A DNA stretch of 64,000 nt from Bigelowiella natans CCMP2755. Lineage: Eukaryota; Protista; Cercozoa. Shown here piece by piece: positions 18,076-40,045 of the stretch (positions are counted from its first letter, which is position 1; every line of letters starts with the position of its first letter). The translations under genes were made by a program, and so were the position numbers. The stretch covers positions 124,001-188,000 of the forward strand of contig ADNK01000828.1 in NCBI GenBank assembly GCA_000320545.1, written 5' to 3'. The notes under the pieces are model-generated. The model was not told the DNA's origin. It saw only the letters and a list, made by a program, of their open reading frames with translations, and did no database searches.

Positions 18076-19033
18076 TTAAGCAGCGACTTTGAAAAGCTTG
18101 TCGTCCATTGCCTTAATGTCTTTCATTTCAGAGTCATCCAACACCTTAGCCATAATTTCCCAGCAGAAGCCTTCAACTTCCTGTGCCATGCTCTCAAGTA
18201 CAACAGTGCGGTCCTTCTCAATTCCACTAAGGGCAGCTTCAATCTCCTTGTTAACCTTATCCTTGCTAGCAGCCATAGCAGCTTCGCATTCTGCGTTCAG
18301 AGCGGCAAGCTTTTCGTTTCTCTCACTGTTGATAGTTGCGCGCATATTGTTGATAGATTTTTCAGCGAAGGAAATAATCTGATCGCACTCCTCTAAGTTG
18401 CCACTCGCAGACTCGAGGTTAGCCTTCAAGATACCGTTACGCTGATCAATAACTTTGCTGAGAGGTCCAAACCAGAGCTTATCAAGGAAAAAACTCAAGA
18501 GTACGATCTCGGTTGCCATGTACGGCAAGGTAAGATCGAAATCGAAGAGCAATCCACCCGCAGCGAGAGCAGGGAAAGTGTTTGCAAGGTTGCAAACACC
18601 CACAGTAGCAGCAGTGGCCAGTGGAGCCCCAACGCGAAGACGGATTTTGTTAGGCGCAAGGTCAACTAAATATAAAATTTGTTAGTACAATTTCATCACA
18701 GAAATTCTCAAGAAATTCCACAGTACCTGGACGAGGGCGGACAGCAATTTGCTTTTCGTTGGAGTGTGCAAAGGCAGAAACGGATCGAGATGAAGGTGCA
18801 ATTCTCATATTTACAGGAGCAGCCATCCTTGATCGCGAGACGATACCGGTGCTAACATTACCTATCGAATTTTTAAAATTGTTCATCACCCAACCCCATG
18901 AATTTATTTACACTTAACAGTAATCGACTTTCTTTTCAAATCTACCTTGAGTGTTTACACTGAAGAGGACAAGGCCCACAAGGACACAAGCCAGTACTAC
19001 GTTAAGAACGGCAGAGGCGTGGACGGCCTTCAT
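18076..19033 (-). CDS. atpG: Plastid ATP synthase CF0 subunit b' (II) precursor, 3 exons
   Basis: Mature region GGLLFDFDLTLPYMATEIVLLSFFLDKLWFGPLSKVIDQRNGILK. Exon 1 (19033-18946) encodes the signal peptide MKAVHASAVLNVVLACVLVGLVLF. Exon 2 is a Ser/Arg-rich transit peptide. Exon 3 starts with a thylakoid signal ending PALA. Confidence 0.95.
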
Positions 19034-19743: not shown

Positions 19744-20707
19744 ATGGACGTCAATCTTGAACCTTCGTTCTTCTCTCGCAACACTGGCTTTGATGACGAG
19801 GAAGATGAGAAGAATGCAAAAGATTCAGAGTGCCCAAAACCAACTGTTATTTTCACTGTACGATACTCGCGAATTCTTTTTCATTTTATGAATGTAATCT
19901 GACAATATGTGTACTACGCAGTGGTGTCCATCAGTCAAAGCAAATCTGAAGAACGGATTGTTCAATACCGAGCTTCTTGTGATCGGCTGTAATGATATGT
20001 GCTCGTTAGCTCTTCGACGTGCTGTAGAATGTGGGGAAAATAAGATGGACTTGCTAGGAAGTTTAGTGATGGAGGAAACTCCTATTAGGACTATGAGCGC
20101 AGCGAATCCCACTATTGCTCAGCAAACCTGTATGTTTTACTACCTACCAAGTTCCAAACTTACAATAGCTATGGTGGGGGGAGGTTTACCTGCATCAAGT
20201 GCGTTCAACGTTACGGAGACCATATTTAAGCATTTCGATTGTAAAAATGTTGTCCTCTTGGACACGACGATGACTGCAGCAGCAGAAGCTGATGAAGAGA
20301 AACTGTCATCCCTGGCATGCATAGAGACTAGTGAAGCGTCCTCAAGCAAAGGGCTGGAGATTATAGATAGTAAATATTTATCACCACCATCCATGATTCG
20401 TGGCCTCGGAGCTGCTCTCATGATCCATTGTGAGATAAAGAGTATTCCAGCAAGGCTATACACTGCTTTTGAGGATATGCATAGGACCCTAGACACATGT
20501 CTTGTCTTTGATAGATTACTATCGAGCTCATCCATTGCACTAATTCCCAAAAACGTATTGTCGATGGAACTCTCAAATAAAAGATTAGAAATCAAAGATG
20601 TTGCTGAAAAAGCAGGCCTTGACTGGGAAAGTCCTCTACAGGCACAGCAGCTAGTATATGCGGAAGGGGGAACTAATGTACCACCTCCCGATGGGATTTA
20701 CATTTGA
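19744..20707 (+). CDS. PSMG1: Proteasome assembly chaperone 1 (PAC1), 2 exons
   Basis: Acidic N-terminus (SRNTGFDDEEDE), motif YLSPPSMIRGLGAALMIHCEIKSIPARLY, and a C-terminal HbYX motif (-GIYI). Phase-0 intron at about 19858-19921. Confidence 0.8.
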
Positions 20708-33297: not shown

Positions 33298-33822
33298 TAA
33301 GGTACGTCATCGCTGCTGATCATTGATTCCAAAGCGATGACCACTGTCCCGATGGGATCATTCGCAGTGAATGTATCCTAATGAGGAAAAAAAGCCCAGG
33401 GGGGGACACACCAGGAGAGGTGAGAACAGCAATAAGATAGAAAGAGGAAGACGATGACGATTAATACGACAACAACGCAAGGAGTCGAGAGAATGGAAGA
33501 ATAATTATACAATTACCTTGTCAAAAACTGTGAGTCTGAGCGGGTTTTCGTAGATTAAGGATTCATCCATGAGCTTAAAACGAAAGCTTTGGTTCCAAAC
33601 TGGATCGAGGCTATTGTAACAAATTCTTGTCTCGCGTTTCAAATTTTGATTGCTTCCATCCCCAAGGCGTATAAGAACGTATGCATCAGTCGTATTTCGG
33701 GTTGAGTCCATGACAGGAAGATTACGAGCGCCATAAACTCGCACCTAACAGATGATGATAAATTAGGGCGCGCTGTCGTGAAATGAATTAAATGTTTCTC
33801 CTACCATGACAAGAGCCGCCAT
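21553..33822 (-). CDS. C2CD5: C2 domain-containing protein 5 (C2CD5)-like, about 12.3 kb, microsatellite-filled introns
   Basis: MAALVM/VRVYGARNLPVMD...TDAYV...LDPVWNQSFRF...VFDK/DTFTANDPIG.../GWFPVYDTLK; GFVDELIVSADPE; GANSVIGYRFDIDFE/GSHGVIARGYGTA; VSENILFIQYDLYRQL; LGLNAAFGL; final exons ARAQVFAKGGNALLSY / YSIMSLSGDAV. All are in C2CD5 order. Confidence 0.9.
22480..33300. repeat. Dense microsatellite field: (TA)n, (TG)n, (GA)n, (GAT)n, (TAG)n, (GAG)n, (GAA)n, (CAA)n
   Basis: Dozens of perfect arrays of about 25-40 bp in C2CD5 introns and exons. Similar fields occur at 10850-14030, 41380-44470 and 48600-64000. Confidence 0.95.
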
Positions 33823-34060
33823 TACGGCTCGACTGTGTAATCGGAGAGTATGGCCAAGCTTGTGTGTGCGTGCTTATGTGTTCTTCCAAGAGTCTATGCG
33901 AGCACGAGAACGAATGTTGATCAGAGAGTGTATCTAGAGAAATTACACCTGTCTATAGAAGTATAATATCGGTAAAACATCTACTTTTTTTTTCCTATTA
34001 AACTCATATTACTTCTTCGCGGTGGTAGTGGTTAATGGTTGTTTATAGCAGTGAGGAGCT

Positions 34061-34842
34061 ATCACTGAAACATCTGCACTTTTTGTTCCATTTTGCCAAG
34101 AAGCCTTTGATGCTCCTGACATGCTGCATGCCAATGTCATCATTTTTCATTGCTCGTCGCACGTTTCTTTGTTGAGTGTTTGTTTGTTTGTTCGTGCAGA
34201 GCAGCAGGGATGTGACATCAAGTGTTCAATGCTCAAATCACAATTGGTGCCTGCGCATGCGGCGACCATGTCGATGCAAAGTTCAGTTCAATCAACTCAC
34301 TTGAAATCGTCACAAAATGGCAGTGCACAACTGCAGGGCTCTCGTTCATTGTCTTTTCACACACTTTGCTCCTCAGTTTTGTTCCTGGGTTCTGCACGCA
34401 CCAGCGCACGCTGCAACGTGCCGTCCTGGCGTGGACTGGCTGCACGTCAGCATGGCCTGATTGCCCGATTTCCAAAGTTGTTCTGCGAAAACGTGCAACG
34501 TCGTGGTCACCTCACGTTCGTTGACTTCCGTGCGACCCTCGTCACGAAGTCCAGAAGTGCTGGAAAACGTGACACATGCAAGCTGCTTTGTGTGATCGTG
34601 AGAGAGTGGCACCAGCAGCAGTGAAGCTCTGATGCCACACGTTCGACAACGACCGCCGCAGCTAGGCAGGCCAGCTAGCCAGTCTAGCAGTGCGAGCACA
34701 GCGAAGTGAACGACAGAAAAGTGCGCAATGAACGATGGAATGCGGCTGTGCGCACGCCGCTGGAACCAGCTGCGTTCGTGCAATGACAACTAGCTAGCTA
34801 GGTGCTGCACACTGGCACAATGCGCAACGTGAATGGCAATGT
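34061..34842. other. TpA-depleted intergenic island 1
   Basis: No TA dinucleotide between the TA at 34060-61 and the TA at 34663-64. The 6 TAs from there to 34842 are all inside CTAG. Confidence 0.95.
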
Positions 34843-35184
34843 GTATGAGTGTGACGCATGCCTCTTTGAATGACAAAGGTTCGTCACTGCTAGTGCGGTA
34901 CCTAACACAGGCATGGGTTAATGTGCAAGCCTAGCAATCGATGAAATAGATAGCACATCTGACATCATGTCTGCTACTCGATTGTGCTTTGTTTGAATGC
35001 GATCATATGATTTAGCTCGACAAAACTAATCAATAGTTATGGCATGTTTTCGTTGTGATGAAGTAATGAGCGTAAGATGAGGCTGAAAGATAGTGTGCTT
35101 TATCATGCTAATCAAATCTACTACTAGATTAGATCCCTGGGGGGTTGCGCATGATGGATAGCAGTTGACTTATCATCTGCATCT

Positions 35185-37987
35185 TTAATCTTTCTTATCA
35201 CCGTTTAGGGACAGAGGGTTGCCTTTTACATCTAAGTCAGGGAGTGATTGGTGCGAATTCAAATTCCGCTCCCAGATTCTCATCTCTTGTAAAGTGTTCG
35301 AAATGGACGGGAACAATGTTTTTTTCGACAAAGCAGCGGCTAACAGAAGCTGCTCTGCTTGGGCATCGGGAGCATTCAGAACGATAACATCTGGTGGGAG
35401 TCCAGATGCAGCTCCATGCCGGCTTCGAGCACGCAATCTTCCATCCCCATCTCCATCTTCAGGTTCATCGAGTGTTTGTAATATGACACGGCAGTCAGGC
35501 ATTTCTCCGTTGATATGTATGGCAACTTCCTTCGCAACACGGTAATTCAAGAACACGACGAGAACTTTTACCTCGTCAGTAATCATTTTGCTGACATACT
35601 CAAGCAATTTTGTGACTTCACCGCTATTTAGGTCGCCGCTTTTATCTTTACCGTCTTCTTCGTCTTGTTGTCCTGTGGTAGATACTCTCTTGCTAGCATC
35701 GAGAAACATGCATTCCCATCCGACCTGTCCAAGTCCCTTCATGGCCCTTCGCACCATGCTGGTTTCTTTCATAGCTAAGACAACTACTTTCCCTCTTCTC
35801 CGTGGCGGTTGTCTGCCAGCTTCTGCCAATGTCCAAAGAGCATGTTTAAACAAAGGAGGGCCCACCACCTGGTTCAAGACTACCATTGCCACGATCAGTG
35901 TTGCAAAATCCGCTCCCCATTCAGGAAATTGGCCGTGGACTTTTTTGGCCAACCCTAGGGCCACACCAGCCTGTGTGACGTACGCATACCAAGCCATCTT
36001 ATTGTGATGGTTTGGTTCATTTGCAATCCACCCTCCAAGAAATGCGCCGCATATCAGGCTTCCAATTCTCACCACGAAAAACAGCATGGAGATGCCGAAG
36101 GTATTCCCAAATGAATCAAGTCCGAGAGAAGCACCAACCAGGGTAAAGAACATCACATACATCACCTGCGCGGTTCTATCCAGAATCTCATGGAATTGTT
36201 TGCTGTAAGGTGTGTGGTTTGCTATCGTGTATCCTGCCACCATAGCTATGATAAGAGCGTCCAAGAGGTCATCATCGTAGTGATCTAGAATGAAAACTAG
36301 AAGTCCAATGGCAAGAAGTATGACAACTTGTGCATGGTGGATGTATGCAGTGTATTTGCACTGCCCTAACCTAGAAGGCCACCACCAGAGGGCATAAGGG
36401 CAGATAAATTTGCCCATAAAAGCCCCTAACAAGCTCGAGAGGATCAACCGTGCTATAGACTTTCCAAATATCTCGGTTGAGTTCTTGCCATTGTCGAATT
36501 GACTGCTTGCAATTAGATTGTTCACTGCAAACATGAAAATAACCAGAACATCCATGACGCATGTGACCGCCATTGTTAGCACTGTAAAGGGGCCTGAGGC
36601 CCTTAAGTCATCAATAATAGCGATAGCTGAAGACGGAGACCTTGCGCAAGCCAGAGTACCAACAAGTATAGCTACCCCTCCCTGCTGTGATGCTGTGAGA
36701 TCTTTTGTGAATTCAAGATCCGGGGAGATCAACACCATGACGAGAGTCACCATCGAAAATGTAAACAGCACCAGACAGAGAGTCACCGTGATAATGCTCC
36801 GCCCTAAATCAAATCAATCAAGGTTTGACGATGAGATTGCTTCCATTTTACTCAATTGTTTGGCACCTTCATATGTACAACCGAGAGAGATGATTACAAC
36901 TAAAAGCTAGCTACCTCTGAAAATATATGACTTAAATTGCTATTTTTTGGTCCTTTCGAACGTTTACCTCCTACTATGGGTTTGGAGCCCGCAGCAAAAG
37001 CAATATATGCCAGAGAAACCTTATAAAGCGTGGAATTATCACGTCTTTAATCATGATAAAGTAACGATGATATTGATGGTGACAATGAAAATTTCTAGAC
37101 CATTTTGCTTATAATTCTCCCGTTAACTAGCTCTCAATGTCGTCGTCCTCAATTACTTCCATTGACAACTAATCACCCGTACCCGCCCAAAAACCCACCC
37201 AGCACCTTGTCAATAACATCTAAGTTCCTAATCTCGTCCTCCGGAATAATGCCGAGACAGTATCCTCCCGCAAGCACACCTTGCACCAATCAGACAAATT
37301 TTGAATGAGAGAGAAACTAGCTTCGAGGACTTCCCCCTTCCTCCCTCCCTCCCTATTTCAACAACTAAATGGTGTTAATACCAACGCCAATATACGCTGT
37401 GATCTTGGGCAATCCAACCTGTGAGCGCAGTATGGTATATCATCGGTTGGTGCTGGTGCTGGTGGTGTTTCACATTAGCTTCGATATAAATTTAGAATAA
37501 TACAATTTCGAATAACTGGTTAAATCATTTGATTGGTGGCACCTTTGGGGCGACATTGCCCATGACCCATGACGCAATAGCAACAATGGCGTACCTTAGT
37601 TGTTGTTGTACATCTTTTGTCATAACAATTGCTAAATGGATAGTAAATCAAACCGCCTACCCTAGTATCAGGCGAATGCTAGGATTTCCGAACACATTAA
37701 TATTTTCGCAGGTATCTCCGTCAAATCCAACAGGGCATTGGCAGGTCATTGAATCCGTGCAGAAACCATCGTTCTTGCATTCATTCTCGCAAATGGCTGT
37801 TTACCAACATATTTCAGATTTCAAAACAGATAGGTTAGATTGTCGTTAGAACATACGGGTTTCGCAATTGGATCCGGAATATCCCGAGTTGCAGACGCAC
37901 GTTGAATTTTGCAGACTTCCGTGTCCATTACAATCGACTACAGAAAAAGAAGAACACACAGATGAAGGAAGCAAAGGGGCGGATTCA

Positions 37988-38241: not shown

Positions 38242-38859
38242 GAGAGAAGATGAAGGAACCTTTAACATAAATAATGCTCGAGAGTCATTGCCGCAGACAA
38301 ACGATGCCCTAACAGAGCAGCCAACAACTGCCTGATACCCAATTCATACATCGCAGCAAAGGAGGACACCATTTCGGCTTCGATTGGCACGTACCCGAAA
38401 CTCCGGTTATTTATGTCGCTTGACTAGTAAACTTGGAGAAGTAGTCTTCCAGCTACACAGATCCCGGCGGCGGCGAAATGGGGAGGGCGGGTTGAGGGAG
38501 AGAGCACCGGAATTACAAGAATAGAGTTGTCCTTTTTAAGACCTAAATATTAAGGATAAATGCTGTCGCTCTCGCTAAAAATGCAACACGTAAAGGTGAA
38601 TTTTCCTCAGATCAGCTTGCACGCTCAACATAAAAAGAAGTCAAAGGAGAAAATTCTATGAGATATTTTGGACCTTGTCTTAACCAATCTCCCCCTATTT
38701 TGCCTGTGTTTTTCATCAAGCGACAAGGAAGGAAGGGCAACGATGTGACGTGCGAGCACTCCTGGCCAAAATCGGAGGACAATGAAACTGGGAATGGAGG
38801 AGTGGCCAAATTGCCATTCTTGATTCCTTTTTGTTTCACTAGTTAGTTCTCACTAGCTG

Positions 38860-40045
38860 CCAAAGTCAGTTCGAGGCACAGTTTTCAGTCCTCACTGAAG
38901 CCAGTTCGAGGCACTGCACTTCGCACACTGGAAGTGTCTTGTCACACTGCTTTGGAAGTGCAGTTTTTCATCATTGTTCTCATTGTTCTCGTGGATGACG
39001 AGTTGGCATGTCTGACCTTTCGAATCAACCTCAGAACCACTTCATGCATTCATTCATTCATGGAAGCAACCCTCAATTTTCACAATGGTCTCCCTCCAAT
39101 GGAAACACTTCTTTCTTTTTCCTTGTTGATTGAGGAGAAACGAAGTGGATGAGTTGGCACATCGTCCGCGGCCAATGACCCTTCGTTTCGCAGTTGCACC
39201 GTTGGAATGACTTCGTTCATTCATTCATCTAGTCATTGCGGCTGACGTCGGCCAGGTGGTGTTCCAGTGGTGCCTGGTCTACTGGCGACACCATGGTCAG
39301 TTCAGAGTTGGGTGCTTCAATTCTCTGGCTGGTGCGCACGTGTCTCGCGTGAGAAACTGGCACTCACAAGGATGCAAAAAAAAGTGAAATACTCGCGATG
39401 ATGTTTGTCACAGTGAGTGTCACTGCACGTTGGGCTTGTTTCCTGAGTGGTGCTCACAAGTGCAGTCCAGCAGTCCAGCAGTGCGTGACTGCACACGCGT
39501 GCGTTCCACGCGTGCCAGCCTGCAGCCTGCTGCGCTGGCCTGTTGGCCTGTCAGCCTGTGTCATCTGTCAGCTTCCCTGGCTAGCTAGCTGCTCAACACG
39601 TGCATCATTCTGCAGAAGTCATGCCACAGATCATTGGCATTCCAATTGTGCGCTGTCATGGAGCATGCGCCATGACATGCAGCTGTGCGGGACGCCTCAC
39701 TCAGGCAGTTGGCATGGAAATGCGTCTTTTTCGTGGTGCTAGCTTGGCTAGTTGGTCTAGAGGGTGGCGTGGTGGCATTTTTTTTCTTTTTTCACCACCA
39801 CGTGGTAGCAGGAAAGTGCATGCCGCATGACGCAACGTGTGCACACTTGCTTGCGAGTTGAAATGACATAGTCGCAGTTTTGGAGTTGTGCAAATGTGCA
39901 CGCACATGTGCAAGTGCATCTGTGCACGTTCTTGCTTTGTCTCTGTTGAATGCTCCTAACTTCAAAGTGAACAAGACATTGTCCACATGCATGCTGACGA
40001 AACAGACAAAGAACATGCGCACAGTTTTTCACATCTTTGATCAAA
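38860..40045. other. TpA-depleted intergenic island 2
   Basis: About 11 TA in about 1190 bp, 6 of them in CTAG; 38860-39229 has none. Confidence 0.93.

Follow-up and report, generated by a model that had tools for sequence, protein, structure and literature searches.

The 64,000-nucleotide stretch of DNA analysed here (the window) is nuclear DNA of Bigelowiella natans, judging from one protein that it encodes. Its plastid ATP synthase b′ protein, the product of one gene, is identical at 196 of 196 positions to B. natans P0014 (jgi Bigna1 47572) and 95% identical to that of B. longifila, and the named relatives of this protein are those of chlorarachniophytes. By naming convention the JGI model name points to scaffold 15, which we take to place the locus outside the hypermutating regions of this species (scaffolds 10 and 146). 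An exon on the minus strand (1185-1526) presumably resembles a JmjC/cupin hydroxylase. The features of the locus are listed in Table 1.

Table 1. Features of the locus, in window coordinates.
Feature	Position	Strand	Remarks
Nucleus-encoded plastid ATP synthase b′	18079-18681	-	PF00430
Proteasome assembly chaperone	19898-20707	+	PF16094
C2-domain host gene, spliced 5′ exons	33320-33880	-	ATG at 33822; RNA contig to 33880; continues to the left of 33320
TA-retaining stretch between gene 5′ end and edge of island 1	33881-34061		Likely promoter, as inferred from position
Island 1, TpA-erased intergenic spacer	34062-34890		Core 34061-34663 free of TA; 7 TA remain, 6 of them in CTAG
(TTTG)n tract	34177-34192	+	Sole such tract of at least 3 units in the window; possibly a product of (TTTA)n
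Two clusters of three surviving CTAG each, the second a tandem (CTAG)3	34662-34801		The six TA that follow the core of island 1
Spliced, expressed host gene, likely cation/proton antiporter	34941-37900	-	RNA contig reaches 34941, leaving ~50 bp to island 1
Island 2, signature as for island 1	38698-40040		14 TA remain, 8 of them in CTAG; two (TTCA)3 tracts

Island 1 occupies most of the spacer between the C2-domain gene and the 3′ end of the antiporter-like gene. The former had been named C2CD5 from the letters alone, and a C2 domain was recovered in its product (PF00168, E 5.5e-14); splice joints at 33376/33516 and 33742/33803 were provided by an RNA contig. The gene on the other side likely encodes a cation/proton antiporter, as suggested by an Atlas search that gave a lead of 0.89 to PF00999 clusters; Pfam and NCBIfam returned no match. 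Its 5′ part extends past 37900 towards island 2. Within this gene a single-exon frame of 542 aa (35185-36813, minus strand) encodes an expressed membrane protein, and a 35-bp intronic stretch (37048-37082) has an imperfect second genomic copy in both DNA runs described below.

The original prediction held that no TA occurs between 34061 and 34663, where about 35 would be expected. In agreement with this, a recount gave 0 TA against the 35.6 expected from the composition of the core itself, over the 603 bases that separate the TA starting at 34060 from the next one at 34663. This gap is the longest among the 4651 TA sites of the window. None of 20,000 shuffles of this core left fewer than 16 TA, no order-3 Markov simulation (60 times 64 kb) contained a TA-free run above 163, and with the islands and their margins set aside the longest TA gap of the window is 126. 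The left edge is as sharp as had been described, with five TA in 34026-34060, and it lies 239 bp from the ATG of the C2-domain gene (about 240 had been claimed); the region 33823-34061 contains 24 TA, at an odds ratio of 1.14. Within 34062-34890 the odds ratios were 1.72 for CA/TG, 4.0 for TGCA and 0.90 for CG, which bears out that the first two are abundant and that CpG remains common. The (TTTG)n tract near 34177-34191, which had been read as converted (TTTA)n, is present but counts merely about four units. The window holds three tracts of the type (TTTG)3+ or (TTCA)3+, all of them inside the islands, a pattern noticed post hoc; both types are possible products of (TTTA)n.

The absence of TA from the core of island 1 is real. 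In each of two DNA runs one contig spans the island, with 0 differences; both runs are possibly the source of this DNA, and they thus speak against an error in the window yet do not represent independent strains. No second copy of at least 80% likeness was present in the contigs of these runs, which show presence better than absence, and island 1 is apparently a single-copy spacer. In RNA run X15 no contig was obtained over 33932-34849, and both flanking genes were covered; the depth of this run is low, so that silence of island 1 is likely, not proven. Run X21 also lacked a contig over the island, but there the C2-domain gene was missing too. The read-based evidence on assembly, copy number and transcription covers island 1 and comes from these two of 14 DNA runs and from two RNA runs; the marine metatranscriptomes X18-X20 (share 0.06-0.10) do not enter into it.

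The process had been thought to be confined to the island 1 spacer. This part of the original prediction is contradicted by island 2, which had been missed, as well as by the 124 clusters of TpA-poor, CpA+TpG-rich 1-kb windows reported for B. natans (Mettrop et al., 10.64898/2026.01.13.699255). Island 2 has a length of 1.34 kb, with a milder TA depletion continuing to about 40340, and the next four longest TA gaps of the window (376, 192, 154 and 144) all belong to it. When the 1-kb thresholds of the preprint were applied, 10 of 631 sliding windows passed, all of them on the two islands. The cluster rule of that study, at least three consecutive 1-kb windows, is failed by both islands (0.83 and 1.34 kb); they are therefore less likely to be among the 124 clusters, which does not affect the view that they arose in the same way. 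Each island begins with a sharp edge, located 180-240 bp upstream of a minus-strand gene, and tapers off on the opposite side; the gene start beside island 2 is taken from the sequence and not from RNA. The position of the sharp edges upstream of gene starts suggests a promoter boundary. No significant homology between the islands was detected (p 0.06-0.72 in 6 tests).

Within bounds that were set after the data had been seen, the TpA odds in the islands are 0.15-0.17 and the CA/TG odds 1.7. Mass balance indicates that in both islands the TA lost are offset by the CA and TG gained: restoring 40-50 TA to island 1 and 70-80 to island 2 brought the TA odds to 0.81-0.94 and at the same time the CA/TG odds to 1.22-1.34, the corresponding values for the background, which is mostly genic sequence, being 0.84 and 1.20. 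A single pass of TA>CA/TG conversion on the masked background produced CA/TG at 1.73 (1.70 observed) and CATG at 2.78 (2.72 observed). This was the best fitting of four single-step models (rmsd 0.17 versus 0.26-0.33), and models based on transversions or on TA>CG fitted more poorly in the simulations. CA and TG were counted in nearly equal numbers (85/93 in island 1 and 135/147 in island 2), as predicted by action on two strands. CA and TG showed no strand clustering (p 0.75 and 0.66, at low power), and strand-processive runs were rejected on this ground. The CpG odds are 0.75 in the islands and 0.76 in the background, which shows that decay of methylated cytosine is not the cause; adding CpG decay to the model made its fit worse. 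Fungal RIP was rejected on account of the direction of the change, TpA being reduced and CA/TG raised, and because the contigs of the two DNA runs contain no second copy of island 1. The original prediction had likewise set both processes aside.

Conversion of TA in the background does not reproduce every feature of the islands. The misfits (island versus model) concern GC (1.35 versus 1.09), AT (0.77 versus 1.03), GAT (0.52 versus 1.26), CCC (0.21 versus 0.59), GCAC (3.5 versus 1.9) and CTAG (1.66 versus 0.76), and the low AT, GAT and CCC and the high GC, GCAC and CTAG persisted in long-run simulations. The residual word biases are common to both islands (r 0.81, matched by 0 of 951 null pairs), which means one of three things: a shared type of ancestor, a mutation spectrum broader than TA, or a genic background that is unfit for spacer DNA.

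Some further word preferences were observed. CpG in the islands falls largely within RCGY (90 of 210 versus 826 of 3778 in the background, both strands counted), beyond what TA conversion alone would give; CCGG is absent from both islands and GATC and CCC are rare, for which TA conversion alone gives no explanation. TGCA and RCGY, both enriched in the islands, are named as methylated motifs of the B. natans-infecting ChlorV giant viruses in 10.1101/2025.11.19.688996. This overlap is probably a coincidence, because full conversion of TATA yields TGCA. The available portion of 10.1101/2021.06.11.447926 contains no B. natans methylation data.

In agreement with the remark first made on island 1, the six TA that follow its core (34663, 34676, 34685, 34791, 34795 and 34799) are all part of CTAG; a seventh, at 34844, is not. 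Island 2 provides a replicate, in which CTAG holds 8 of 14 TA as compared to 174 of 4257 in the background (p 2e-8), a value that overstates the true support: the CTAG sites lie close together, in 6 of 12 TA clusters, and site-level p values are thereby inflated. For the two islands together, the TA surviving versus those expected from the background were 14 versus 6.5 in CTAG, 5 versus 52 in half-sites and 2 versus 99 elsewhere. This gradient agrees with a sequence context that prevents the reaction on one strand, the palindrome alone being blocked on both. A C 5′ or a G 3′ of TA would then block the reaction per strand, and CTAG would be blocked on either strand. Alternatively, CTAG as a whole might be protected, by a protein or by a modification, and the data fit either possibility. 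The product counts (CTGH 80 versus 48.6 expected; CCAH 59 versus 46.5) agree cleanly with neither a 5′ C nor a 3′ G model. The idea that CTAG is a sink for decaying CCAG/CTGG was discarded, as these words are enriched (28 versus 10.5) and CTAG falls in simulations; so was a Dcm-like CCWGG origin, CTAGG occurring at 2 of 14 sites and CCTAG at 0. The words 'CTAG', 'context' and 'trinucleotide' have 0 occurrences in the main text of 10.64898/2026.01.13.699255, the only work returned by a literature search for CTAG in this connection; within these searches no CTAG exception was found in print. The exception provides a fingerprint for any candidate enzyme and can be checked against existing mutation lists.

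A mutator acting on TpA is already known in B. natans. In mutation-accumulation lines two integrated viral regions mutate ~1000-fold faster, and of the 231 mutations found there 230 change A to G or T to C, each of them at a TpA; low-TpA genes are enriched in transposase and reverse-transcriptase domains (10.64898/2026.01.13.699255). These direct measurements, together with the mass balance and the simulations presented above, support the regional TpA>TpG/CpA mutator of the original prediction.

Several explanations do without such a mutator at this locus. The islands could be foreign DNA that arrived already poor in TA, having been mutated or selected elsewhere. The residual biases that they have in common, unexplained by background plus TA conversion, would be in line with this, but the islands cannot be aligned with each other, the mass balance restores host-like values, and 38 phycodnaviruses have TpA odds of 0.75 +/- 0.13, far above those of the islands (10.64898/2026.01.13.699255). 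Searches also failed to identify a donor: 0 of 10 candidate viral contigs were confirmed, blastn gave no match for island 1 against phages and plasmids or for island 2 against phages, and Pfam gave none at its cut-off for six ORFs in or beside the islands. Neither a terminal inverted repeat, nor homology between the islands, nor a further copy (of island 1), nor an element-type domain was found, and a recognisable transposable element was rejected for these reasons. These searches thus detected no viral, transposon or foreign ancestry; aged, mutated non-coding relics would escape them. An import of TA-poor DNA is in our opinion very unlikely. Slightly less probable still is selection against TA in a functional non-coding element (protein-binding, nucleosome, Z-DNA-like or RNA), with CTAG as the bound motif. 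The sharp starts of both islands at 180-240 bp from a gene would fit such an element, as would the presence of CTAG at about twice the expected number and the enrichment of alternating purine-pyrimidine words. However, selection would have had to eliminate ~45 sites in island 1 and ~80 in island 2, each separately, which seems implausible; Rfam produced 0 of 13 matches at the gathering score and no RNA contig covers island 1; and a mutator with a matching spectrum has been measured in this very organism. The 189-aa frame at 34055-34624, which is open across the TA-free core, could point to a gene or pseudogene with TA-avoiding codons, but its length is unsurprising once TAA and TAG are gone (p 0.14), phmmer found 0 matches among 1.84 billion proteins, Pfam none at cut-off, an Atlas search reached 0.75 without a family, and an RNA contig is lacking. 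A coding reading is extremely improbable and can be considered largely refuted.

Taken together, it is very probable that the B. natans mutator acted on a spacer that is likely silent and changed almost all of its TpA. Regional TpA>TpG/CpA hypermutation would have emptied island 1 of TA and spared the TA in CTAG. According to the mechanism we propose, a predicted nuclear DNA adenine deaminase would convert the A of TpA to inosine, on either strand, in silent chromatin, and the conversion would have approached saturation and been halted at the promoter edge by chromatin or by selection. No polarised TA>TG/CA substitution was obtained at the locus (0 differences in two DNA runs) because neither an ancestral nor a sister copy was found; of 16 metagenomic candidates for orthologous DNA, sought via the neighbouring gene, 0 were confirmed. 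Moreover, the islands retain almost no TA that could mutate. As to the chemistry, we favour with moderate confidence a nuclear DNA adenine deaminase acting in silent chromatin, the ADAT2-like Bn78255 being the candidate. Of the two chemistries originally put forward, adenine deamination is also the untested hypothesis of the preprint, which names Bn78255 and cites the 5′-U preference of ADAR (10.64898/2026.01.13.699255); the hmU/base-J route gained no support. A mutagenic thymine modification of the latter type, or biased mismatch repair, would have an equal outcome, since sequence alone does not reveal whether A>G occurred on one strand or T>C on the other, and the deaminase is a candidate. 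Yet hmU pairs like T, no result obtained here speaks in favour of the thymine route, and we consider it rather unlikely.

The substrate of the mutator was, on balance, an old inserted element that is past recognition; an ordinary host spacer is possible and, of the two, the old insertion is the likely target. We tentatively propose, as a possibility on the doubtful side, a four-base rule under which CTAG is immune, and a spectrum wider than the published one, together with a mutator that saturates short single-copy host spacers up to promoter edges. If true, the mutator would edit silent intergenic DNA within limits set by chromatin, and its role would go beyond anti-viral defence. The sharp promoter-side edges point to protection by the host of its own genes. 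In the small saturated islands the process is seen at its final stage, and their size suggests that a count of three-window clusters overlooks short targets.

The islands resemble the system of Mettrop et al. in that they lie in B. natans, show a regional loss of TpA with gain of CpA+TpG on both strands and pass the thresholds of that study; island 1, like its targets, is apparently single-copy and likely silent, the latter as judged from low-depth RNA. They differ in being host-flanked spacers of 0.8 and 1.3 kb, whereas the viral regions measure 25-186 kb, in being near saturation (0.15-0.17 versus 0.45), in the lack of a detectable foreign origin and, with respect to the main text of that study, in the CTAG exception and the sharp promoter-side edges. 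A parallel to RIP as genome defence was drawn by the same authors (10.64898/2026.01.13.699255). Both processes represent local, dinucleotide-specific transition mutagenesis of two strands and a proposed genome defence, but RIP changes C to T, gives rise to TpA and depends on repeats, whereas the islands lose TpA and increase in GC, and no second copy of island 1 is present in the contigs. The process can thus be viewed as RIP in reverse and possibly as a natural A-to-G DNA editor. DNA editing is also ascribed to amphioxus ADAT2 (PMC10354150). The islands share the A>G outcome and the 5′-T/U preference with TadA/ADAT2 and ADAR deaminases. They are very probably another case of a process described only recently, to which their CTAG exception and their small, promoter-bounded form add modest detail. 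ADAR is active on dsRNA, with a preference for UAG; in the islands, by contrast, it is the TAG-containing CTAG that survives.
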